Below are positions 18,093-49,170 of a stretch of DNA of 64,000 bases, piece after piece; position 1 is the first letter of the stretch; every line of letters begins with the position of its first letter. A program made the position numbers and the translations under genes. The stretch comes from Escherichia coli 042. Its GTDB lineage: Bacteria; Pseudomonadota; Gammaproteobacteria; Enterobacterales; Enterobacteriaceae. The stretch is taken from assembly GCF_000027125.1 (NCBI RefSeq), contig NC_017626.1. One strand, given 5' to 3'. The notes below the pieces were generated by a model, which saw nothing but the letters and a program-made list of their open reading frames with translations, was not told where the DNA came from and did no database searches.

Positions 18093-18917
18093 TTACTCCA
18101 GCGGCATTACCAGCGGATCGGGATACTGGTATTCAAATCCCAGTTCATTACAAATCCGACTGCCATCAATAATCTTACCTTTGCCGCTGTCCAGACTATT
18201 TCTGAACTGCGGAGGTTCCAGCCCCAGTAAACGGGCCATCTGCGGATAGAAAACATTACGCGCAGGGTGATCTGGCGCACATATATTATAGATGTGTCCG
18301 CCTTTAGGTGCCTGTAACAACAGAGTGATAGCGCCAATAACATCTTCTAAATGGACTAAATTAACACCATGTTCACCATCAGGGGCGGTTTTTCCGGCAA
18401 AGAAGCGTCCGGGATGACGTCCCGGTCCGACCAGCCCCGCAAGACGCAGAATATCGACCGAAGTACCGGGTAAATTGTGCAGCCAGTCTTCGAGCTCTTC
18501 TAATACTCGTCCACTGTTGGTCACCGGATTACGCGGGGTAGTTTCTTTCACCGTGCCTTGCGCATCGCCATAGACAGATGTTGAGCTGGTGAAAATAATG
18601 CGGGGAATACGATGGGCCAGCGCGCTATCCACTAACTCTTGTACCGCTTGTAAATAGAACTCATCGCCGGGGCCGCTACGACGTGCCGGAAGCGTAATGA
18701 CCAGCGCATCGGTATCCATCAGGGCATCCAGATCGTCAGAATCGCAAACTAACTCAGGCTCCATGCGAAGCAGATAACTATCAATGCCACTCATTCGGGC
18801 CGCTTCGACACCATCTTGCGTGGTTTTACTCCCGGTGACTTGCCAGCCTCGCGCTGAAAGTGACATCGCCAGCGGCATGCCTAACCACCCTAACCCGACA
18901 ATTGCGACCTTTTTCAT
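18093..18917 (-). CDS. yeeZ: NAD-dependent epimerase/dehydratase-family protein YeeZ, 274 aa
   Basis: N-terminal Rossmann motif VAIVGLGWLG; length matches K-12 YeeZ. Confidence 0.85.
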   Translation of the reverse strand: MKKVAIVGLGWLGMPLAMSLSARGWQVTGSKTTQDGVEAARMSGIDSYLLRMEPELVCDSDDLDALMDTDALVITLPARRSGPGDEFYLQAVQELVDSALAHRIPRIIFTSSTSVYGDAQGTVKETTPRNPVTNSGRVLEELEDWLHNLPGTSVDILRLAGLVGPGRHPGRFFAGKTAPDGEHGVNLVHLEDVIGAITLLLQAPKGGHIYNICAPDHPARNVFYPQMARLLGLEPPQFRNSLDSGKGKIIDGSRICNELGFEYQYPDPLVMPLE

Positions 18918-18999
18918 CCGTTATCTCCTGATACACCTTAGATCTATAAGGCTACGCTAGCGTATCAAAACTGACAATTCATTCTATGAATGAATCTGT

Positions 19000-19254
19000 T
19001 CAATAATGATAACGACATGCTGCAATGAGCAGTGAATCGTCGGTAACCGCGTATACCAGACGGTGCTCCTCTGTAATGCGTCGGGACCAGAAGCCTGACA
19101 AATTATGCTTCAGGGGTTCTGGCTTCCCCTTACCTTCAAATGGTGTTCTGCGGGTATCTTTGATAAGTTCAATGATCTTTTTAACAATTCGCTTATCTGT
19201 TTCCTGCCAGTACAGATAATCATCCCATGACTCCTCAGACCAGATTAGTTTCAC
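19000..19254 (-). CDS. yoeB: Type II toxin YoeB (ribosome-dependent mRNA interferase), 84 aa
   Basis: Length; overlaps the yefM stop by 4 nt; position next to hisL. Confidence 0.9.
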
Positions 19255-19502
19255 TCAATAATGTCCTTTTCCGTTCCTTTGCCTGATTTCAGGCTATCGA
19301 TTGAGTCCATCAATCTCCGGGCGTTAGCGGGGGAGCGCAGTAGATAAGCCGTCTCTTCCAGCGAGTTGTATTCTTCGAGTGACATCAGAACACAAGCCTC
19401 TCCATTCTGACGAGTAATAAGGATCGGGGCATGATCTTCAACGGCTTTCATCATTGTTGCCGACAAATTCTGGCGCGCTTCGCTGTAGCTAATTGTACGC
19501 AT
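19251..19502 (-). CDS. yefM: Type II antitoxin YefM, 83 aa
   Basis: Start set at [13 protein letters not shown] with AAGAGGAG RBS; overlaps yoeB. Confidence 0.9.
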
Positions 19503-19517
19503 TTCAATCTCCTCTTT

Positions 19518-19535
19518 TGTACAGTTCATTGTACA
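19518..19535. promoter_or_regulatory. yefM-yoeB operator: TGTACA-N6-TGTACA
   Basis: Two TGTACA hexamers at 19518-19523 and 19530-19535 just upstream of the yefM RBS; this core hexamer is the reported YefM-YoeB binding site. Confidence 0.6.
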
Positions 19536-19717
19536 ATGATAGGCGTTAATTAACTATTTATTAATTAGTCTGTAGATCAAGACATTGTCAGTGAGACGAA
19601 AAATCCAGGTTTCGCTATTTTGGGTGCCGTCAGGTTAGGGGACACTCCTCTTAGCCCCCTCCTTTCCCCGCTCATTCATTAAACAAATCCATCGCCATAA
19701 AATATATAAAAAAGCCC

Positions 19718-19747
19718 TTGCTTTCTAACGTGAAAGTGGTTTAGGTT
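19718..19747 (+). promoter_or_regulatory. Candidate his operon promoter (-35 TTGCTT, 17-bp spacer, -10 TTAGGT/TAGGTT) with AT-rich upstream tract
   Basis: Hexamers about 40 bp upstream of the hisL ATG. Confidence 0.45.
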
Positions 19748-19785
19748 AAAAGACATCAGTTGAATAAACATTCACAGAGACTTTT

Positions 19786-19836
19786 ATGACACGCGTTCAA
19801 TTTAAACACCACCATCATCACCATCATCCTGACTAG
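19786..19836 (+). CDS. hisL: his operon leader peptide, 16 aa with seven consecutive His codons
   Basis: ATG ACA CGC GTT CAA TTT AAA CAC CAC CAT CAT CAC CAT CAT CCT GAC TAG. Confidence 0.95.
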   Translation: MTRVQFKHHHHHHHPD

Positions 19837-19900
19837 TCTTTCAGGCGATGTGTGCTGGAAGACATTCAGATCTTCCAGTGGTGCATGAACGCATGAGAAA

Positions 19901-19933
19901 GCCCCCGGAAGATCACCTTCCGGGGGCTTTTTT
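19901..19933 (+). terminator. his attenuator terminator
   Basis: gcccccggaag (19901-19911) / cttccgggggc (19917-19927) stem followed by TTTTTT at 19928-19933. Confidence 0.85.
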
Positions 19934-19981
19934 ATTGCGCGGTTGATAACGGTTCAGACAGGTTTAAAGAGGAATAAGAAA

Positions 19982-20881
19982 ATGACAGACAACACTCGTT
20001 TACGCATAGCTATGCAGAAATCCGGCCGTTTAAGTGATGACTCACGCGAATTGCTGGCGCGCTGTGGCATTAAAATCAATCTTCACACCCAGCGCCTGAT
20101 CGCGATGGCAGAAAACATGCCGATTGATATTCTGCGCGTACGTGATGACGACATTCCCGGTCTGGTAATGGACGGCGTGGTAGACCTTGGGATTATCGGC
20201 GAAAACGTGCTGGAAGAAGAGCTGCTTAACCGCCGCGCCCAGGGTGAAGATCCGCGCTACTTTACCCTGCGTCGACTGGATTTCGGCGGCTGCCGCCTTT
20301 CGCTGGCAACGCCGGTTGATGAAGCCTGGGACGGTCCGCTCTCCTTAAACGGTAAACGTATCGCCACCTCTTATCCTCACCTGCTCAAGCGTTATCTCGA
20401 CCAGAAAGGCATCTCTTTTAAATCCTGCTTACTGAACGGTTCTGTCGAAGTCGCCCCGCGTGCCGGACTGGCAGATGCGATTTGCGATCTGGTTTCCACC
20501 GGTGCCACGCTGGAAGCTAACGGCCTGCGCGAAGTCGAAGTTATCTACCGCTCGAAAGCCTGCCTGATCCAACGCGATGGCGAAATGGAAGGATCCAAAC
20601 AGCAACTGATCGACAAACTGCTGACCCGTATTCAGGGTGTGATCCAGGCGCGCGAATCAAAATACATCATGATGCACGCACCGACCGAACGCCTGGATGA
20701 AGTCATCGCCCTGCTGCCAGGTGCCGAACGCCCAACTATTCTGCCGCTGGCAGGTGATCAACAGCGCGTAGCGATGCACATGGTCAGTAGCGAAACCCTG
20801 TTCTGGGAAACGATGGAAAAACTGAAAGCGCTGGGTGCCAGTTCAATCCTGGTGCTGCCGATTGAGAAGATGATGGAGTGA
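19982..20881 (+). CDS. hisG: ATP phosphoribosyltransferase, 299 aa
   Basis: Start set at [17 protein letters not shown]; first structural gene after the attenuator. Confidence 0.95.
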
Positions 20882-20886
20882 TCGCC

Positions 20887-23257
<2,371 letters not shown>

Positions 23258-23258
<1 letters not shown>

Positions 23259-24324
23259 TGAGTCAGAAGTATCTTTTTATCGATCGCGATGGAACCCTGA
23301 TTAGCGAACCGCCGAGTGATTTTCAGGTGGACCGTTTTGACAAACTCGCCTTTGAACCTGGCGTGATCCCGGAGCTGCTGAAGCTGCAAAAAGCGGGCTA
23401 CAAGCTGGTGATGATCACTAATCAGGATGGTCTGGGAACACAAAGTTTCCCGCAGGCGGATTTTGATGGCCCGCACAACCTGATGATGCAGATCTTCACC
23501 TCACAAGGCGTGCAGTTTGATGAAGTGCTGATTTGTCCGCACCTGCCCGCCGATGAGTGCGACTGCCGTAAGCCGAAAGTAAAACTGGTGGAGCTTTATC
23601 TCGCTGAGCAAGCGATGGATCGCGCCAACAGTTATGTGATTGGCGATCGCGCGACCGATATTCAACTGGCTGAAAACATGGGTATTAATGGTTTACGCTA
23701 CGACCGCGAAACCCTGAACTGGCCAATGATTGGCGAGCAACTCACTAAACGAGACCGTTACGCCCATGTAGTGCGCAACACCAAAGAGACGCAAATTGAC
23801 GTCCAGGTGTGGCTGGATCGCGAAGGTGGCAGCAAGATTAACACCGGTGTTGGCTTCTTTGATCACATGCTGGATCAGATCGCTACTCACGGCGGTTTCC
23901 GGATGGAAATCAACGTCAAAGGCGACCTCTATATCGACGATCACCACACCGTCGAAGATACCGGCCTGGCGCTGGGCGAAGCGTTAAAAATTGCTCTTGG
24001 CGACAAACGCGGTATTTGCCGCTTCGGTTTTGTGCTGCCGATGGACGAATGCCTTGCCCGCTGCGCACTGGATATCTCTGGTCGCCCGCACCTGGAATAT
24101 AAAGCCGAGTTTACCTACCAGCGCGTGGGCGATCTCAGCACCGAGATGATCGAGCACTTCTTCCGTTCGCTCTCTTACACCATGGGCGTGACGCTCCACC
24201 TGAAAACCAAAGGTAAAAACGATCACCACCGTGTAGAGAGTCTGTTCAAAGCCTTTGGTCGGACCCTGCGCCAGGCCATCCGCGTGGAAGGCGATACCCT
24301 GCCCTCGTCGAAAGGAGTGCTGTA

Positions 24325-24325
<1 letters not shown>
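23258..24325 (+). CDS. hisB: Bifunctional histidinol-phosphatase / imidazoleglycerol-phosphate dehydratase, 355 aa
   Basis: N-terminal HAD motif FIDRDGT; length; operon position. Confidence 0.95.
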
Positions 24326-26403
<2,078 letters not shown>

Positions 26404-26410
<7 letters not shown>

Positions 26411-27015
26411 CAGAACAACAACGTCACGAACTGGACTGGGAAAAAACCGACGGACTGATGCCGGTGATTGTACAACACGCGGTATCTGGCGAAGTGTTAA
26501 TGCTGGGCTATATGAACCCGGAAGCTCTGGACAAAACCATCGAAAGTGGCAAAGTTACCTTCTTCTCGCGCACTAAACAGCGACTGTGGACCAAAGGCGA
26601 AACGTCGGGTAATTTCCTCAACGTAGTGAGTATTGCGTCGGACTGCGACAACGACACTTTATTAGTGCTGGCGAATCCCATCGGCCCGACCTGCCACAAA
26701 GGCACCAGCAGTTGCTTCGGCAACACCGCTCACCAGTGGCTGTTCCTGTATCAACTGGAACAACTGCTCGCCGAACGTAAATCTGCCGACCCGGAAACCT
26801 CTTACACAGCCAAACTGTATGCCAGCGGCACCAAACGCATCGCGCAGAAAGTGGGCGAAGAAGGGGTGGAAACTGCGCTGGCAGCAACGGTACATGACCG
26901 CTTTGAGCTGACCAACGAGGCATCTGACTTGATGTATCACCTGCTGGTGCTGTTGCAGGATCAGGGGCTGGATTTAACGACGGTGATTGAGAACCTGCGC
27001 AAACGGCATCAGTGA
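26404..27015 (+). CDS. hisI: Bifunctional phosphoribosyl-AMP cyclohydrolase / phosphoribosyl-ATP pyrophosphatase, 203 aa
   Basis: Last gene of the operon; length; overlaps the hisF end. Confidence 0.95.
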
Positions 27016-27025
27016 GTTGCGGACT

Positions 27026-27143
27026 GACCGGATGCGATGTTGTAGTCGCATCCGTAGCCATTGCCCGATGCGCAAGCTTATCGGGCCTACTATTCGCTCT
27101 GCACATTTTGGCTGGATAAGATGCGCCAGCATCGCATCCGGCA
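27026..27143. repeat. Cluster of REP-type palindromic units downstream of hisI
   Basis: Units such as ccggatgcgat...tcgcatccg, gcccgatgcgcaagcttatcgggcctac and ggctggataagatgcgccagcatcgcatccggc match the REP consensus. Confidence 0.55.
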
Positions 27144-27184
27144 AAAAAAACGGGCAAGGTGTCACCACCCTGCCCATTTTCTTT
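27143..27184. terminator. Bidirectional terminator between hisI and wzzB
   Basis: A8 run, stem gggcaaggtg (27152-27161) / caccctgccc (27166-27175) with one mismatch, then a T-rich run. Confidence 0.6.
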
Positions 27185-27197
27185 AAAACTGCAAAGA

Positions 27198-29736: not shown

Positions 29737-31143
29737 TTAATCCAGCCATTCAGTATGGAACACACCTTCTTTATCAATGCGCTTATAAGTATGTGCACCG
29801 AAATAGTCACGCTGTGCCTGGATCAGGTTCGCAGGCAGAACAGCGGCACGGTAGCTATCGTAATAGGCAACCGCAGCGGCGAAGGTCGGAACCGGGATAC
29901 CGTTTTGTACTGCATAAGCAACGACATCACGCAGCGCCTGCTGGTAGTCATCAGCAATTTGCTTGAAGTACGGAGCCAGCAGCAGGTTAGCGATCTGCGG
30001 ATCTTCGGCATAAGCATCGGTGATTTTCTGCAGGAACTGCGCACGGATGATGCAGCCAGCACGGAAAATCTTCGCGATTTCGCCGTAGTTCAGATCCCAG
30101 TTGTACTCTTCAGACGCGGCGCGTAGCTGAGAGAAGCCCTGAGCGTAAGAAACGATTTTGCCCAGATACAGCGCACGGCGAACTTTTTCGATGAACTCAG
30201 CCTTGTCGCCTGCTGGCTGCGCTTGCGGGCCAGAGAGAACTTTAGACGCGGCAACGCGCTGATCTTTCAGAGAAGAGATATAACGTGCAAACACAGACTC
30301 GGTTATCAGCGACAGCGGTTCGCCGAGATCCAGCGCACTCTGGCTGGTCCATTTGCCCGTACCTTTGTTTGCTGCTTCATCCAGAATCACATCAACCAGG
30401 TAGTTACCGTCTTCATCTTTTTTGGTGAAGATATCTTTGGTGATGTCGATCAGGTAGCTGCTCAGTTCACCGTTATTCCACTCGGTAAAAGTCTGCGCCA
30501 GTTCTTCGTTGGTGAGGTTCAGGCCACCTTTTAGCAGAGAATAGGCTTCAGCAATCAGCTGCATATCGCCGTATTCAATACCGTTGTGAACCATCTTCAC
30601 ATAGTGACCTGCGCCATCGGCACCAATATAGGTAACGCATGGCTCACCGTCTTCAGCTACTGCGGCGATTTTGGTCAGGATCGGTGCAACCAGTTCATAG
30701 GCTTCTTTCTGCCCACCAGGCATGATGGAAGGTCCTTTCAACGCCCCCTCTTCACCGCCGGAAACACCGGTACCGATGAAGTTAAAGCCCTCTGCTGAAA
30801 GCTCACGATTACGACGAATAGTGTCCTGGAAGAAGGTGTTACCACCATCAATGATGATGTCACCTTTATCGAGATATGGTTTGAGGGAATCAATAGCAGC
30901 ATCCGTGCCTGCACCTGCTTTCACCATTAACAGGATGCGACGAGGGGTTTCAAGAGACTCGACAAACTCTTTCACCGTGTAATAAGGAACCAGTTTCTTA
31001 CCCGGGTTCTCGGCAACAACTTCTTCAGTTTTTTCGCGGGAGCGGTTGAAGACGGAGACGGTATAACCACGGCTTTCGATGTTGAGCGCCAGGTTGCGCC
31101 CCATCACTGCCATACCGACGACGCCGATCTGTTGCTTGGACAT
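29737..31143 (-). CDS. gnd: 6-phosphogluconate dehydrogenase (decarboxylating), 468 aa
   Basis: N-terminus [30 protein letters not shown]; length. Confidence 0.95.
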
Positions 31144-31295
31144 TACATACTCCTGTCAGGTGTGGTCACCGCGACATACGCGGTTATGCTTGTAAAGCAG
31201 ATAGTATCAAACAATTAGTAATCTATGTTAGAACTTACTCAAGCTAAGTGTTCATAAATAGAACAAACTAATTCTATTCAAAGAGGACTCATTGA

Positions 31296-32531
31296 TTACA
31301 TTTCGAATGTTTTTTTAGGACGCATCTTTTTTATCATAAAAAAGCTGCAGAGAAGTAATATGAAACTAATACACTCTACAAGCAGAATCGTCATAGCAGC
31401 ACCTTTAACACCGTACTTCATTATTAAGAAATACATAGTTGGTATCGATGTCAAAATGCAAACATACGAAACATACAAACCCACTTTATAAAACCCCTGT
31501 GACTGAATTATTGCAGTTGTACCACCATTGATACATTTCACACATGCAACAATCAAGAACATCATTATCAAGAAATCATTATTAACATTAGAAATCAATA
31601 CAAAATGACCCAGGTATTTTATTATAAAGAAATAAACTAATGAACTCAGCACGCCATATGCCACAATACATAACAGGAACTGAAACACCTTAGTAAAAGC
31701 ATTTTTTTCTTGTAAGTTAATTCGGCAAAATCTTGCATAGGCAACTGTAGAAAATACAGAAGAAACCATAACCAGTGGATCAACCATCCTAAATATCTGG
31801 CCATATGCTGCAAGATCCCCTGGGGCAAATGTCTTGAGATAAAAATTATCTATACGGCTATAAATAATTACAACAACAGCTGTAAGACCTATACTTAATG
31901 TATATTTATATAAAGAAAGAATTGACATTAGCACATCAAAAGCTGACGTTCTAATAAACCTAAACTTGACACTAACGAATAGTTTTAGTGTAACCAGCGA
32001 TACGAATAATAGTTCAACACACAGGTAATCCCATGCGTTAAATTTAACGTTTAAAAAATACTGAATAGCGAAGATCGTACACGTTGCAATAGATGCAATT
32101 GCGATCGGAACCGTGAGAGATTTATTGGAATTGAGAGATTGAAAATAGCTATTTGAGAAATTAAAAAATAAAGCAACAGGTAAGGCTAACACAATAGGAA
32201 TATAGACATTATATTGATAACCCTGAACAAAAGAATACAAACAAAACAGTAGTAAAACAATTACTCCAGAAAGAATTTTTTGTGCAAACGTTACATTTAA
32301 TAGTTTTATTTTATCTGTAGAATCATTATATTTTTTTATAACAAACAGATCCACACCAAAATCAGTAACCACCCGAAGGACTTCGAGAAAACCAACTAAA
32401 AAAATGAACTCTCCGCCTACATCTTCTCCTAAGGAACGAGTAATCAGAATTATTGCAAGTGTTTTAAAACCGAAGTAACATATTTTATTAAATAGCGAAA
32501 AAATGCCATCGGAGAAAATTTCTTTGATCAT
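31296..32531 (-). CDS. wzx: Candidate O-antigen flippase Wzx, 411 aa
   Basis: AT-rich multi-pass membrane protein; N-terminal pattern ...TLAIILITRSLGEDVGGEF typical of Wzx; last gene of the cluster before gnd. Confidence 0.6.
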   Translation of the reverse strand: MIKEIFSDGIFSLFNKICYFGFKTLAIILITRSLGEDVGGEFIFLVGFLEVLRVVTDFGVDLFVIKKYNDSTDKIKLLNVTFAQKILSGVIVLLLFCLYSFVQGYQYNVYIPIVLALPVALFFNFSNSYFQSLNSNKSLTVPIAIASIATCTIFAIQYFLNVKFNAWDYLCVELLFVSLVTLKLFVSVKFRFIRTSAFDVLMSILSLYKYTLSIGLTAVVVIIYSRIDNFYLKTFAPGDLAAYGQIFRMVDPLVMVSSVFSTVAYARFCRINLQEKNAFTKVFQFLLCIVAYGVLSSLVYFFIIKYLGHFVLISNVNNDFLIMMFLIVACVKCINGGTTAIIQSQGFYKVGLYVSYVCILTSIPTMYFLIMKYGVKGAAMTILLVECISFILLLCSFFMIKKMRPKKTFEM

Positions 32532-32572
32532 GTCATGCCTACTGGTGAGATCCTGGTCGAAAAATAAACCAC

Positions 32573-33904
32573 TTACTGACCATGATAAATTTTATTTTTA
32601 ACAAGTAATGGAGATATAAGAACAATCGGCAATGATTTTAGAAGAAAAGCCAATGGCAAAATCAGTTCACCACGAACAGCATAAAAAAATCCAGATATCA
32701 TGGAGATGGCAACAAAGTTTATTATTATCCGTTGATTATTTAGTCCCCATTTAATAAAAAGCATCACCCCTGATAAATACAGTAAATAAATAATCACTCC
32801 CAAGTTTAGACTCAGCAACGATGACTCTAACAATCCTGAAGATGACAACGCAATACCAGAGGATACATCACCTAAAACAATTATTGAAAAATCTTTTGCG
32901 ATTTGTTGATCATCAAGAAAACCAAGACCGCTTAGCGGTAATACTTGTGTGAATACCACAGCGGGATGAAGTTGATCCCATCCTGATGATTGCATATCAA
33001 ACAAATTCTGCATCCCCCCAAGAGTAGAGGATAGCGAATCTAAAACAATGCCAATATAAATCATAAAATCGATTTGGTACCCTTCACGGAAATACGATAC
33101 CATCGAGAAGCATAAAAAACCGGCGATGAGAAATATTGGTTTTGAGAGTTGCTTAAATAAATTTCTTACTCTATACTCATTAGAGTACATATATAGTATA
33201 AAAATACAAATCACTGAAAAGAAAAACTTATTACGTATTCCAATAGCTAAATCAGATGCAAGTAAAACAAATGCAATAACTTTAATGTAGGTCGGTGTTT
33301 TAAAATAAAAAGTGGACAATGACATTACAACTGCAAAACCACTAATAGCACGAATAAAAAATGGAACTTGGGATAGCAATTCTTCGCTTTCAGTATAAAT
33401 TGCTAAATGCCCTTCTCCTGAATTCAATATAAACATAAGATAAATTAATATTTTGTATAATTGACACAGTGCAACAATAGAAAACAAAATATAAAATAAA
33501 CTAGTTAAATATCTTTTTTCTTCTTTTATGACAGTCTCTGTTGTTTGCAAGTAAAGGATGGAATTGATCAACATCCCCCAGATACAAATTATTTCAAACC
33601 CATGATTTGCGTTTTTAAAATAGTAAAGATAAATCGATGGCAAACCAATAATCAAAGAAAAAACGAATGCAAAAAGTAAGGTTAGTGATAAATAGCGAAC
33701 TCTATTAATATAATAATAGAACATCAAAACAACTAATAGCGCTGTAGATATAGTGGCTAAAATATCAATATACACTTGCGATACAAATGTATCCGCCCCT
33801 CCCCACAAGAAACATGAGGATAGTGAAAGAAATACAGAAAAATATATAGCCAGATGTTTAAACTGTATTTTATTGCACAATAATGAATAATATTGCTTAT
33901 GCAT
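32573..33904 (-). CDS. wzy: Candidate O-antigen polymerase Wzy, 443 aa
   Basis: Very AT-rich, highly hydrophobic multi-pass protein with no soluble domains; adjacent to wzx. Confidence 0.5.
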   Translation of the reverse strand: MHKQYYSLLCNKIQFKHLAIYFSVFLSLSSCFLWGGADTFVSQVYIDILATISTALLVVLMFYYYINRVRYLSLTLLFAFVFSLIIGLPSIYLYYFKNANHGFEIICIWGMLINSILYLQTTETVIKEEKRYLTSLFYILFSIVALCQLYKILIYLMFILNSGEGHLAIYTESEELLSQVPFFIRAISGFAVVMSLSTFYFKTPTYIKVIAFVLLASDLAIGIRNKFFFSVICIFILYMYSNEYRVRNLFKQLSKPIFLIAGFLCFSMVSYFREGYQIDFMIYIGIVLDSLSSTLGGMQNLFDMQSSGWDQLHPAVVFTQVLPLSGLGFLDDQQIAKDFSIIVLGDVSSGIALSSSGLLESSLLSLNLGVIIYLLYLSGVMLFIKWGLNNQRIIINFVAISMISGFFYAVRGELILPLAFLLKSLPIVLISPLLVKNKIYHGQ

Positions 33905-34087
33905 AGTAATTAGCTTTACTAGTGAAGTAACTCATTTGAAAAATAAGAAACAGTTAATTTTACAATCTCTTATTCGGGATGAACGCAAATAAAAACACCA
34001 ATGCTAAATATAAACAATTTATAAACAATCTATTACTGAGCGGTTAAATGACAAACCGCTCAAGAGTAGAAAAAAGTTTATATTTTT

Positions 34088-35509
34088 TTACAAAAGAGTA
34101 ACTTTATGCAAAACTTCTAACACTAATTTTTCAGCTTTTATTATGTTATCTGCTTCTGCATAGCATCGCAATTCAGGTGCGTTGCCTGACGGTCGCAAAT
34201 GGATTATTGAACCATCACTTAGTGTCAATCTTAACCCGTCAATTGTATCCACCGATTGTACATGAAGATCGACAAAGCCTATTCTTTCGATAAATTCTTG
34301 AGGATTTTCTTGAGCTGACGCGATAATGCTTTTGCTTTTGCTTGTTGCAAAATTTTGAACTCTATTTGAGTAGGTAAATCGTGGTGGCAACTCCGCCAAG
34401 AGTTTTGAAATAGTCACATTATTTTTTATAGCCAGTGCCAGTACCATTAAAGCAGGCAAAACAGCATCTCTTGTTGGAAGCGCTTTAATCATACCGCTGT
34501 TATAATTTACATCGCTACCTAAAAGATACCCACCGTTAGCCTCAAACCCTGCAACCCTATCAAAACTATTATTCAGAGAATCAAACGCTGAAATGACGTA
34601 TGGTGAACCAATTTTAGTCAGCGTTACATGATTAAACCACCCGCAAGTCTGAATAACCGTATTACAACTTACAGGTACAGCTACCGCTTCAATATTCATT
34701 GCCTTTGAGCAAAATAGTCCTAATATATCACCCCGTAACCAAACGCCATTTTCGTCAGCAACCAAAGGACGATCGCCATCACCATCGGTAGAAAAAATCA
34801 TATCGAGGTCATACTCAGATGACCAGTGTAAAGCTTTTTCTTCATCTTCTTTTGATACTGCTTCAGTATCAATAGGCACAAACTCATCACTTCTACCAAT
34901 ACTTACAACTTCAGCACCAAGCTTACTGAATATTTCTGAATAAAGATCCCGTCCCGCACTTGAATGTTCATAAATCCCGATACGTTTACCTTTAAATATA
35001 TTTGAAAAAATTGAAGTGTTTCTCTCGATATAAGTATCAGCGGCACGCTTTGAACATTGTAATTCTGGCAATACAGTTACATCAGGATACTCTTTTTCAG
35101 CATGTATAATGCTGTTCTCATTTTCTTTTGAAATTTCCCCGTCTGGACGATAGAATTTCAAACCATTTCTATCAAATGGAATATGACTTCCAGTAACCAT
35201 TATTGCAGGAATCCCATCGGCAATCGCTTGATTTGCCAAAGCTGGAGTTGGAATTACACCGTAGTAAATAGGTTTAATACTACATTCCAACAATGCTGCT
35301 GCGCAAGCTTGTGCCATAGCATAGCTGCTTGGGCGATTATCTATTGCGAGCGCAACCTCTTTAAAAGAAAAATCCTTCATCATTACATCGATAAAAGCAT
35401 AAGTGAATGCAGCACACACGTTGGGTGTAAAATCTTTCACTAATCCACGAGCACCACTTGTACCAAATGCAATTCCGCTATTTTTAATTACATCATTGGT
35501 AATATTCAT
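34088..35509 (-). CDS. manB: Phosphohexomutase, ManB-like (start at M13 of the ORF preferred, 5 nt after the manC stop; the ORF could extend to 35545)
   Basis: Phosphoserine-loop motif [11 protein letters not shown] (variant of TASHNP); tightly coupled to manC; GAGGA upstream of ATG 35509. Confidence 0.65.
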
Positions 35510-35513
35510 ATAA

Positions 35514-36929
35514 TTATTTATCCTCAACACGACCATATTTATCACTTAGGCGCACAATATCATCATCACCTAGATATACACCCGACTGAATCTCAATTAC
35601 TTCTAATGGTATCTTTCCTGGATTTTCCAAGGTATGAACTGTGCCAATTGGTATGAAAGTTGACTCATTTTCAGTGACGAAAAAAGTGCGTTCGCCGCAA
35701 GTCACCTTTGCAGTACCAGCGACAACCACCCAATGCTCAGCTCGATGATGATGCATTTGTGTTGAGAGACATTCACCAGGCTTAACGGTAATACGCTTTA
35801 CCTGATAACGGTCGCCACGTTCTACAGAATCATAACGTCCCCAAGGACGATAGACTTCGCGATGGGATATATGTTCGCTACGTTTTTGCTTTTTAAGAAT
35901 TTCGACAATCTTCTTTATGTCTTGTACGTTGTCTTGCTGTGCTACCAGGAGCGCATCTTTAGTTTGAACTATAATAAGGTTATTAACTCCTACAGTGCTG
36001 ATCAGTGAACCTTCAGAGTAAATGTAGTTGTTCCTGCTGTCATAGTTAATTACATCGCCATGCGATACGTTTTCATGTTCATCTTTCTCTGATATTTCCC
36101 AAAGTGATGTCCATGAACCGATGTCACTCCAGTCAGCATCAAGTGGAATAACTACACAATCCTGAGTTTTTTCCATTACCGCATAATCAATTGACTCATC
36201 GGGACATTCTGCAAAGACATCAGAATTTAATCTGATAAAATCTAGATCAGTACTAGCACTGGAAAGCGACTCTTTACACGCTGCTAAAATATCAGGGCGA
36301 AATTTTTTCAATTCATCTAAATATACGCTCGCCTTGAACATGAACATACCACTATTCCACAAATAGCATTTTTGTTCGAGATAATTTTTAGCCGTTTCTA
36401 AATCAGGTTTTTCGACGAAAGAATTTACTTTAAATACAGAGTTTTTAACTTGTTCGCCCTTTTTAATATAGCCATACCCAGTTTCAGGTTTGGTCGGGAC
36501 GATGCCAAAAGTCACTAACTTATTGTCAACGGACTCTTGTTCTGCAGCTAAAACAGCTGCATGGAAGGCTTCAATATCCTGAATAGCATGGTCAGCAGCA
36601 AGAACCAGCATATGATGATCGCCATGGAGTTCTAGAGACTTTAGAGCAGCCAGCGCAACGGCGGGCGCAGTATTTCTACCTACAGGTTCTAGAATAATCT
36701 GGAAGTCATCCACACCGAACTGTCGCAATTGTTCAGCAACAATAAATCTATGCTCATTATTGCTAACAATGACAGGAGGCAAACAATTTAATCCATCAAG
36801 TCTCTTCAACGTTTCCTGGAGCAAACTATTTTCATTAATCAATGATAAAAATTGTTTCGGGTATAACGAACGCGAAAGAGGCCATAAGCGAGTACCAGAA
36901 CCACCGGCCATAATAATTGGGATAATCAT
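35514..36929 (-). CDS. manC: Mannose-1-phosphate guanylyltransferase / mannose-6-phosphate isomerase, 471 aa
   Basis: N-terminus [28 protein letters not shown]; C-terminal cupin region; roughly 60 percent identical by eye to the cpsB product in the same window. Confidence 0.85.
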
Positions 36930-36930
36930 T

Positions 36931-38133
36931 TTATTTAACAGACTCCTTAATTTTCTGGATATATGGGCTCAATTTAGCTTCCCATGAAAAATTCTCACCG
37001 ATAAACTTTTTCGCAACTAATGCTGTTTCGGTATATTTATCCAGATTTGTTATAAAATAATTTAATACACGTAAATATTCTTCTTTTGTATTGGCAACAT
37101 AAATCTCCTTACCCTCCTCTGCTCCCAAGCCTTCAAAGCCTACAGTAGAAGAGATACAAGGTAATCCCAACGCCATATATTCAAGTACCTTATTTTGGAT
37201 ACCTGCCCCTAATCTAATAGGACATACACCAATATGCCCATCAGCTGCTGCATAAGTTATGCTATCAACTTCACCTGTGACAACAACGCCAGGCTGGCTT
37301 TCTAACCAACTCTTATCTTTATCTGTAATACGTCCGATGACCTTAAATTCAAAATTACCATGCTTGTTAAGAAATGGTAAAACTTCCTTGGTGAACCATC
37401 TCACACCATCCATATTTTGCAAAGAATATAAATTACCTATAAATACAAGGGTTATCTTTTTATCTTTAGCTATTTTTCGTTCTGAAAAAGGTAAGCTAAC
37501 GGCATCAACACCATTTCCACAGACTAATACATTATTCGGACGGTCTGGATATAAATAATCGGAGTCAACCTGTGATACCAAAGTAGTCAAGCTGAACTTG
37601 TTATTTATAGTTCGCTCATATCGTTCGAGTCTTTTTTGTTCAAAAGAATATACAAATGTTTTTAAACTCAATAAAGATGCTTTTTCCTTTACTCGTTTAT
37701 AATTAAGTGAAATGGCATCGGTCATCTCTAAAAAATTTATATCTTTATTCTCTTTCACATAATCACCAACCCTTATCAAATGTGAAAGAGTTGCAGAATG
37801 TTCAGGTAATAACTGCTTAAGTTTATCTTCAAATTCTTTAGATTTATAATACCCAATCTGTAGGGGAGTATTTGAAAACAAAGAGAATATGACATTTAAA
37901 ATAGATTTTTTCTTTGAAAGATATACTCTGTGAACACTACTAAAAACTTCACGATCATATTCATAGTTGAGCTCTTCGCGTTTATCACACAGACTCAGCA
38001 ACGTAAGATCATAATGCTTAGACAGTTCTTTACAGATCTTATAGATACGTAATCGATCCCCACCAATGACAGGAAACGGGAACCGTGGAGTCAAAACTAA
38101 TATCTGTTTCTTATTTATATCAATATTACTCAT
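36931..38133 (-). CDS. Glycosyltransferase, GT4 (family 1) type, 400 aa
   Basis: C-terminal motif [26 protein letters not shown] (E-x7-E-like); AT-rich. Confidence 0.75.
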
Positions 38134-39163
38134 AAATCTTTCTCAATTCATTTTCAAATAAAATATGTTCATGCAGAGCTTTCCTTTCGACACTGGGTGA
38201 ATTATCTACCAAGTATGAATAGACTTCATAATACTCAGAATAGTAAGTATAAAAGAAAATATTCGAATCCTTTTGTTCGCGGAAAGCAGAGATCCGTGTG
38301 CATATAACATTTTTGCATGTGAGTTTTGCTTCAGCTAAAGTCCTTCCATACCCCTCGGCAAGCGAATGAGCCCAAACAATTTTAGAATTACAATATAGTT
38401 TGACGACTTCCTCTAAAGAAACAAAACCAATAATTTCAATTTCTTTATCTGTATCCCGCCCATCAATTAAGTCGTTAACCTTGCTAATACCATTCCCACA
38501 ACCTAATATTTTTAATGGTATTCTTTCTTCCCTTGGGATTGAAAAATAATAGTCCAGAGCTGTGCCTAGATCCTTATTATCCCCTAAACCTGAAACTAGA
38601 AGTAAATATCCAAGATCTTTTATTTCGGTAACATTAGCAATTTTCTCAAATGAGAAAAATGGATTTGGGAGCAGGATAGATTCTATACACTTAAATAGCG
38701 ATATTCTCTTAGATACTCGCTGAGTGCTTTGAGAAATAAATATTACTTTCTTTGCTAAAAAAGATGAAAAATAAATACAGACTTTCACATAAATGGCAGC
38801 AAGATTTCGTTTATTTTTCTTAAGACTAATGAAGTCATGAATTATAACAATTGCCTTACCTAATAACAAGTCAATGATGGAACTACTATTATAGGGATAT
38901 ATATTATACTTAGTTCTATAAAATATACCCATAATTGGTATTAAAAGCTGCTCTACTATTATAAAAAGAACATTCAGAAACCATGAAGGCAGCTTATGGA
39001 ATGCTTTTGGACATGCAACATAAATAACCTGAACATTATTGTCTCTTAACTTTTGCACAAGTTCAGAAGTATAGATCGGTATTCCTCTTTTCAAAATACC
39101 ATCAAAAAAATTATTTACAATTACTTTCATGTTTGCTCTTAAGTTTATTTCAGATATTATCAA
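38126..39163 (-). CDS. Glycosyltransferase, GT4-like, 345 aa; first gene of the O-antigen operon
   Basis: C-terminal SLAEGYGRTLAEAKLTCKNVI motif; overlaps the downstream glycosyltransferase by 8 nt. Confidence 0.65.
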   Translation of the reverse strand: MIISEINLRANMKVIVNNFFDGILKRGIPIYTSELVQKLRDNNVQVIYVACPKAFHKLPSWFLNVLFIIVEQLLIPIMGIFYRTKYNIYPYNSSSIIDLLLGKAIVIIHDFISLKKNKRNLAAIYVKVCIYFSSFLAKKVIFISQSTQRVSKRISLFKCIESILLPNPFFSFEKIANVTEIKDLGYLLLVSGLGDNKDLGTALDYYFSIPREERIPLKILGCGNGISKVNDLIDGRDTDKEIEIIGFVSLEEVVKLYCNSKIVWAHSLAEGYGRTLAEAKLTCKNVICTRISAFREQKDSNIFFYTYYSEYYEVYSYLVDNSPSVERKALHEHILFENELRKIYE

Positions 39164-39229
39164 TAGTATAAAAATAGTCAGGATTATTATTTCTTATTTT
39201 GAGAACGCATCATATAAACACAATCTTAC

Positions 39230-39268
39230 CACGCTACCGCCCCTGGCTTAACAGCTACCAGTGCACTA
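39230..39268 (-). promoter_or_regulatory. JUMPstart element with ops (GGCGGTAGCGTG on the transcribed strand) in the O-antigen operon leader
   Basis: Plus strand cacgctaccgcccctggcttaacagctaccagtgcacta; ops reverse complement at 39230-39241; near-identical copy upstream of wza. Confidence 0.7.
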
Positions 39269-39523
39269 GCAAAATGCCAAAGATGTACCCCGCCCCGCTA
39301 GCTATCGCAAAGCTATCTTAAATTCAAACGCCAATTGTCTTACCAAATGCTGTCAGAAACAAGGATAAATCCAACAAAAAATAGATTAAACTTAGTAGGT
39401 TAACTCGTTGTTATTCTTTGTTTTAAAAAGAAAAACGACAGTAACATTCCTTTGTTTAAAGCATAGACGCCGGGATGTTAGCTGCCGCTATTTATCTAAA
39501 TTATTGTTACATTGGCTTGGGAT

Positions 39524-44555: not shown

Positions 44556-44742
44556 GCCTGATGCGACGCTGGCGCGTCTTATCAGGCCTACAAGACCCGA
44601 GCACAGAACCGTAGGCCGGATAAGGCGTTCACGCCGCATCCGGCATTCAGTGCCTGATGCGACGCTGACGCGTCTTATCAGGCCTACAGGTCCCGAGCAC
44701 AGAACCGTAGGACGGATAAGGCGTTTTACGCCGCATCCGGCA
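44556..44742. repeat. Tandem pair of BIME units (each a REP pair) between wcaK and wzxC
   Basis: gcctgatgcgacgctg[g/a]cgcgtcttatcaggcctaca...gtagg[c/a]cggataaggcgtt...cgccgcatccggca present twice, about 96 bp apart. Confidence 0.7.
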
Positions 44743-49069: not shown

Positions 49070-49170
49070 ATCGTTACCCTTTTTCAGGCAATAGTTGGCC
49101 CTGACCGAAACGGCCAATTTTGTTTTTGTCGTTATTTACCGGAGAATTAATCCGGTTGATTATTCAACTG

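Follow-up and report, generated by a model that had tools for sequence, protein, structure and literature searches.

The trp, leu, thr, pheA and ilv attenuators of enterobacteria follow the same logic as that of the his operon, in that a leader peptide with regulatory codons and a pause hairpin are combined with mutually exclusive antiterminator and terminator helices, between which the decision is kinetic. The regulatory codons and the sequences of those leaders are unrelated to those of his, and the his leader comprises six segments (A to F) as opposed to four in trp. To our knowledge, its run of seven regulatory codons is the longest uninterrupted one among these enterobacterial attenuators. 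For Escherichia coli K-12 and Salmonella, it is established that expression of the operon rises as charged tRNA-His falls, and the Salmonella mechanism has been probed experimentally by deletion of E-F, a block of translation and a stop codon at His5 (PMC4046918). Both the hairpin dependence and the NusA dependence of the hisL pause have likewise been documented by experiment (PMC9291695).

Here we analysed a stretch of 64,000 nucleotides from E. coli 042 (contig NC_017626.1; hereafter the window), in which positions 19786-19933 correspond, with very little room for doubt, to the ribosome-mediated transcription attenuator of the E. coli hisLGDCBHAFI operon, an already known textbook element that is intact but ordinary. 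The full RF00514 (His_leader) covariance model of Rfam, positions 1-126, aligned at 19812-19935 on the plus strand and scored 131.6 bits (E = 1.4e-21; gathering score 49). The segment 19694-19977, covering promoter, leader and attenuator, is 100% identical to E. coli K-12 MG1655, and the 311 nt compared hold 2 substitutions. One is C for T at 19693, which precedes the promoter, and the other is G for C at 19978, with the hisG ATG following 4 nt later; neither is expected to alter function. The K-12 counterpart (b2018 and its leader) has the same promoter, hisL, pause signal, segments A-F and U-tract as the window, and both share yefM as the upstream and hisG as the downstream flank. A 311-nt query around the element was found in 5,423 of 5,426 complete E. 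coli genomes, at least 99% identity over the 148-nt element being retained in 5,085 of the 5,423, and RefSeq labels the matching genomes 'hisL: his operon leader peptide' and 'His leader region'. The name 'his attenuator', given to this stretch in an earlier sequence-only reading, is thus borne out by the covariance-model score, by the RefSeq annotation of identical DNA and by the identity with K-12. The same reading held the operon to be normally regulated, which agrees with the identity to the studied K-12 and Salmonella element but goes beyond what a sequence can show; we infer the histidine response in the window from the published K-12 and Salmonella work, by way of the 100% identity with K-12.

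The his attenuator of Salmonella enterica has the same 16-aa peptide, architecture and mechanism as that of the window. In the two subspecies sampled (L028 and L049), segments A-E and the stem part of F do not differ from the window, whereas the terminator loop reads ATCAT rather than ATCAC and the T-run is T8 rather than T6-A-TT; in one of the two (L028), segment C has the substitution A19859G, with which both pairings can still form.

The features of the leader and its promoter are as follows.

19718-19747, plus strand: probable his promoter, hexamers read by eye
19718-19723, plus strand: -35-like TTGCTT, with an 18-nt spacer to the -10
19742-19747, plus strand: -10-like TAGGTT, at a position that fits a start at 19755
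19755, plus strand: probable transcription start (+1) of the his leader RNA
19786-19836, plus strand: hisL leader peptide gene, ATG 19786 and TAG 19834-19836, 16 codons (MTRVQFKHHHHHHHPD) plus stop
19807-19827, plus strand: seven consecutive His codons (the sensor), CAC CAC CAT CAT CAC CAT CAT, codons 8-14
19828-19857, plus strand: his pause signal, with hairpin 19828-19845, 11-nt spacer, pause U19856 and next G19857
19896-19933, plus strand: E:F intrinsic terminator (attenuator), core stem 19901-19911 / 19917-19927

The hexamers TTGCTT and TAGGTT are likely the -35 and -10 of the his promoter, and an A/T-rich tract (19700-19714) precedes the former. This promoter was absent from the output of a consensus promoter scan because its hexamers match the consensus at only 3/6 and 3/6 positions. 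We place +1 at 19755 because all coordinates of PMC10989985 then map exactly: the boxes at +46-54, +48-56, +126-134 and +187-195 and the nucleotides U49, G127, U128 and G129 described there all fit, and the end of the leader RNA and U-tract falls at about +179. The hisL peptide is identical to that of K-12 b2018, and RefSeq annotates hisL on identical DNA; the start, the stop and the peptide with its seven His residues were all found where the sequence-only reading had put them. The His run is invariably His in 55 related leaders.

Between the hisL stop codon and the terminator stem lie 64 nt (19837-19900), and the earlier description of a GC-rich terminator with T6 at this distance proved exact to the base. 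The hairpin consists of GCCCCCGGAAG (19901-19911), the loop ATCAC (19912-19916) and CTTCCGGGGGC (19917-19927), followed by TTTTTT (19928-19933), which gives a core stem of 11 bp with 9 G:C pairs, a loop of 5 and then T6; A:U and G:U pairs between 19896-19900 and 19928-19932 extend the stem. It is located 5' of hisG (ATG 19982), on the same strand as hisL. The 155-nt leader folds at -68.4 kcal/mol, compared with -37.4 +/- 3.8 in 200 dinucleotide shuffles (z = -8.2; 0/200 as good), and the terminator hairpin alone at -30.8 kcal/mol (z = -7.6). At first pass, a simple consensus terminator scan did not return this hairpin, most likely because the stem extends through AGAAAG/CUUUUU pairs and thereby uses up the T-run; when started at 19901, the scan gave 11 pairs, 9 of them G-C, a loop of 5 and the tail TTTTTTATTG.

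The six classical segments A-F were placed by direct complementarity and form the following helices.

19819-19832 with 19841-19854, plus strand: A:B helix, 12 pairs, -11.8 kcal/mol in isolation
19836-19844 (GUCUUUCAG) with 19855-19863 (CUGGAAGAC), plus strand: B:C helix, 9 pairs (one G-U), -12.1 kcal/mol in isolation
19855-19862 with 19871-19878, plus G19854:U19879, plus strand: C:D helix, 8-9 pairs, -12.7 kcal/mol
19869-19876 (GAUCUUCC) with 19907-19914 (GGAAGAUC), plus strand: D:E antiterminator helix, 8 perfect pairs, -16.7 kcal/mol, z = -3.8
19896-19911 with 19917-19932, plus strand: E:F helix, 16 pairs including the A:U extension, about -29 to -31 kcal/mol

Since B, C, D and E each take part in two helices, the set A:B + C:D + E:F excludes the set B:C + D:E. 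The A:B helix, which forms when the leader is untranslated, and B:C, the first half of the antiterminator conformation, are each paired in 100% of cells across the 55 sequences. D:E, paired in 99.1% of cells in the same sequences, occupies the inner 5 nt (19907-19911) of the terminator 5' arm together with 3 nt of the loop. The inner part of A:B is the pause hairpin (19828-19845), with CCUGA and UCAGG closing an 8-nt loop, CUAGUCUU, in which the hisL stop codon sits; it is followed by CGAUGUGUGCU, and the G-10/Y-1/G+1 consensus falls at 19847/19856/19857. We take U19856 to be the pause nucleotide, following the work of the Landick laboratory on the his pause. The experiments that established pausing were done on a sequence identical to this one (PMC9291695).

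The comparative set came from a pattern scan for seven His codons followed by Pro-Asp-stop with one genome per species, which returned 76 loci and 55 distinct leaders; the pattern itself confined the set to leaders ending HHHHHHHPD-stop, all of them from Enterobacteriaceae. For each of the two conformations, 99.6-99.7% of pair cells across the 55 leaders can still pair. Mean column entropy is 0.093 in the 71 paired columns as opposed to 0.46 in the 26 unpaired ones (Mann-Whitney p = 3.5e-5, a value that ignores phylogeny), with variation concentrated in the loops and the D-E spacer. A19859G, the only common substitution in a dual-use segment (C), is found in 16 of the 55 leaders and keeps pairing in both C:D (A-U to G-U) and B:C (U-A to U-G), and the often-varying third position of His codon 7 (19827) falls in the internal bulge of A:B. 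RNAalifold, run on the alignment, independently recovers A:B, C:D and E:F. No double-sided compensatory change was found in any pair among the 55 Enterobacteriaceae leaders, and shuffle controls were flat; these leaders are too conserved for covariation to speak at this depth, so that no support was counted from it.

Natural variants of the sensor were also observed. In E. coli 14EC017 (NZ_CP024134.1; L079:2420-2625), the His run has lost 9 nt in frame, which leaves four His codons, Arg3 is changed to His, and RefSeq annotates a His leader but no hisL; this may reflect either an error of assembly or a natural variant that arose by slippage and differs in sensitivity. Trabulsiella odontotermitis TbOT1.10 (L060:1191-1345) has ten consecutive His codons by way of a 9-nt insertion. 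The four-His and ten-His leaders indicate that the length of the run varies by three-codon units in both directions. In Enterobacter sp. EA-1 (L056:525-679), it is the U-tract after the terminator that differs, being shortened to T5. A 32-aa ATG open reading frame on the plus strand (19848-19946), lying over segments C-F, was considered as a candidate gene and rejected, as indels of 1 or 2 nt in the D-E spacer of relatives break its frame; it is almost certainly not a gene.

The switch was followed by staged folding of the transcript from 19755 at four transcript lengths, with each codon in turn covered by a ribosome footprint of 30 nt, assumed to reach from -15 to +14 nt around the A-site codon. 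The minimum-energy helices, as C, D, E and F in turn had left the polymerase, were these.

No ribosome: C out, A:B; D out, A:B + C:D; E out, A:B + C:D; F out, A:B + C:D + E:F
Ribosome on His codons 2, 4 or 6: C out, B:C (8-9 pairs); D out, C:D (8); E out, B:C + D:E, about -30 to -31 kcal/mol; F out, C:D + E:F
Ribosome at the stop codon: C out, none; D out, C:D (8); E out, D:E; F out, C:D + E:F

In this model, folding shows that the alternative structures exist and that the position of the ribosome flips A:B to B:C. The combination B:C + D:E was the minimum-energy fold only with a ribosome over the His codons and F untranscribed, a stage at which 12 pairs were counted in the D and E segments of that fold. 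For the complete leader with ribosome footprints, C:D + E:F was the minimum at every ribosome position under equilibrium folding, and at the E-out stage D:E belonged to the equilibrium minimum in both the stop-codon and the stalled states, which were therefore not separated. The RNA folding that the sequence-only reading had proposed as a way to look for antiterminator pairing thus revealed the antiterminator, and the full-length equilibrium fold never picks it.

That full-length folding always gives the terminator is the only point in favour of regarding the hairpin as a plain, unregulated terminator, or as a chance hairpin after a chance small open reading frame, with a His run that senses nothing. 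The hairpin precedes hisG by 48 nt on the same strand, at a place where no gene ends that would need a terminator, and the seven His codons precede genes of histidine biosynthesis. B:C and D:E sit exactly where they would keep it from forming; across the 55 leaders, the peptide, the terminator and every stem stay conserved while the loops drift; and the covariance-model score reaches 131.6 bits. In Salmonella, moreover, deletion of E-F abolishes attenuation (PMC4046918). With the placement of D:E and B:C, the conservation and the RF00514 score all speaking against it, we regard this scarcely credible reading as refuted.

The attenuator reading instead takes the dominance of the terminator at full length to mean that the switch must be read as a kinetic, co-transcriptional one. 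B:C and C:D are nearly isoenergetic, so that whichever forms first would persist until the polymerase has passed the U-tract, and folding order would decide. The final choice must depend on this order, with the kinetic step itself taken from the published model (PMC4046918).

In our reading of the attenuator, transcription would start near 19755. With the hairpin 19828-19845 formed, RNA polymerase would pause at about 19856 and wait for a ribosome to start on hisL. If charged tRNA-His is plentiful, the ribosome would pass the seven His codons, reach the stop codon at 19834-19836 and cover B; C would then pair with D, leaving E free to pair with F once F is made, and the 11-bp G+C-rich hairpin and the U-tract would end transcription at about +179, before hisG. 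If charged tRNA-His is scarce, the ribosome would stall on the His codons and cover only segment A, the emerging B and C would pair, and D would be left free to pair with E; with the terminator 5' arm occupied by D:E, the polymerase would continue into hisG-hisI. With no translation at all, A:B, C:D and E:F would all form and termination would be maximal. How the operon responds to histidine in vivo, that the polymerase pauses and in what order the helices form are carried over to the window from published work on the K-12 and Salmonella element, whose sequence is the same or nearly so.

A long-range helix (19793-19798 / 19887-19892 plus 19807-19810 / 19880-19883) is also predicted, which links codons near the start of hisL with the D-E spacer, so that A:B and C:D lie within it. 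In a 56-sequence alignment, 9/9 one-sided changes in this helix keep a G-U pair and 0 break it. We know of no such helix in the classical A-F model.

A further layer has been put forward by Yao et al. (2023; PMC10989985) as a 'DnaA-dependent riboswitch', in which DnaA binds rDnaA boxes in the leader RNA and strengthens termination on top of the classical mechanism. The proposed boxes map to the window as follows (PMC10989985).

19800-19810 (+46-56), plus strand: proposed rDnaA boxes
19880-19888 (+126-134), plus strand: proposed rDnaA box
19941-19949 (+187-195), plus strand: proposed rDnaA box

All four boxes are present in the window, where their sequence equals that of K-12. Every one of them, in turn, has two mismatches to the 9-mer consensus TTWTNCACA, and sites with two mismatches occur 1,209 times in the 64-kb window (one per 53 nt) compared with 1,114 +/- 31 in shuffles. 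In the leader there are 7 of these sites, where the density of the window predicts 3.7, and 11% of equal-sized tiles hold as many, so that enrichment of DnaA boxes in the leader was indistinguishable from chance against both shuffles and window tiles. The leader was recovered by RNA immunoprecipitation with DnaA-FLAG, and expression was about 4-fold higher in a dnaA(A345S) strain, whereas binding in vitro was not found by the authors (PMC10989985). The deletions +48-54 and +128-134 led to 3-5-fold de-attenuation (PMC10989985). According to our mapping, the former drops 7 nt (TTAAACA, 19802-19808) inside the hisL reading frame, and the resulting frameshift takes translation out of the frame of the His codons and extends it to the TGA at 19886-19888, through B, C and D; this alone could disturb attenuation, which would confound the interpretation of that deletion. 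The latter removes 19882-19888, part of the predicted long-range helix, and alters the predicted AB and CD folds, as the authors note (PMC10989985). On balance, we consider a contribution of DnaA unlikely, and a second, protein-dependent input to the leader besides ribosome stalling, be it DnaA binding or a role of the long-range helix, improbable to a similar degree.

More doubtful still is that the terminated leader of about 179 nt acts in trans as a small RNA, or that the 16-aa peptide is functional in its own right. The terminated leader is stable and highly structured, the long-range helix is predicted both in the single sequence and in the alignment with all one-sided changes keeping the pairing, and the N-terminal half of the peptide (VQFK) is conserved. 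The conservation of the VQFK codons is, however, equally explained by constraints from RNA pairing and attenuator spacing; this analysis found no evidence of a target, and no other Rfam small RNA matched at the leader in the window. We consider either function very improbable beside attenuation.

Downstream of the attenuator, the operon comprises eight genes.

19982-20881, plus strand: hisG, 299 aa
20887-22191, plus strand: hisD, 434 aa
22188-23258, plus strand: hisC, 356 aa
23258-24325, plus strand: hisB, 355 aa
24325-24915, plus strand: hisH, 196 aa
24915-25652, plus strand: hisA, 245 aa
25634-26410, plus strand: hisF, 258 aa
26404-27015, plus strand: hisI, 203 aa

All genes of hisGDCBHAFI (19982-27015) have their K-12 length and no internal stops, and their proteins share 98.6-100% amino-acid identity with those of K-12 (0-6 differences each). 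The stretch 19680-27015 (7,336 nt) aligns to K-12 with no indels, at 96.6% identity. The attenuator had been read earlier as confirming that the operon is intact; the operon is indeed intact, but this was established by checking the eight genes separately and does not follow from the attenuator. The hisI-wzzB intergenic region (27016-27197) contains REP-like palindromes and, as seen by eye, a hairpin with an A-run on one side and a T-run on the other (~27143-27184), which has the look of a bidirectional terminator serving his and wzzB, whose transcripts converge here.

Upstream of the leader, the neighbours on the minus strand are yeeY, yeeZ and yoeB-yefM, and from hisG onward the gene order is the standard one of E. 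coli. The toxin-antitoxin genes yoeB-yefM occupy 19000-19254 and 19251-19529 of the minus strand, and the TGTACA...TGTACA repeat (~19519-19536) and promoter-like site (19564-19536) in the region upstream of the pair are presumably the YefM-YoeB operator and promoter. Farther upstream, sbcB (which ends at 15418) is followed after ~75 nt by plaP (15493-16857, minus strand), with the junction at 15416-15493; E. coli E2863 has ~1.5 kb with tsuB/tsuA (yeeD/yeeE) between the two genes, absent in the window. This direct sbcB-plaP junction is shared by 782 of 5,426 E. coli genomes, which makes it a common lineage polymorphism. From plaP to hisI (15491-27024), identity with E2863 is 91.3%, yet the 311 nt around hisL are 100% identical; this mosaic, together with the 96.6% identity of the operon to K-12, fits recombination around the neighbouring O-antigen locus. 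The O-antigen cluster (31200-39300) lies between gnd (29737-31143, minus strand) and galF, and is 100% identical to strains annotated with O17/O44/O73/O77/O106-family wzx and wzy, such as O17_K12a and CFSAN061770. Other elements recognized by Rfam in the window, the last four above the gathering score, are listed here.

39230-39268: JUMPstart element
16998-17072, minus strand: STnc240 small RNA, between plaP and yeeY
44614-44684, plus strand: naRNA4, a REP-type repeat
49074-49123, minus strand: algC RNA motif, inside the colanic acid region
63546-63584, minus strand: second JUMPstart, presumably ahead of the colanic acid (wca) cluster

Were a second input to the leader to exist, it would tie histidine biosynthesis to the state of replication initiation, and a layer of this kind would be common to E. 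coli as a whole, with nothing peculiar to this window. For the strain itself, the finding means that a standard, undamaged control region is joined to a complete histidine operon, and its value is one of annotation only. With an O17/O44/O73/O77/O106-family O-antigen cluster carried next to a standard his region, the his-gnd-O-antigen region of the window can be read as ordinary E. coli chromosome.
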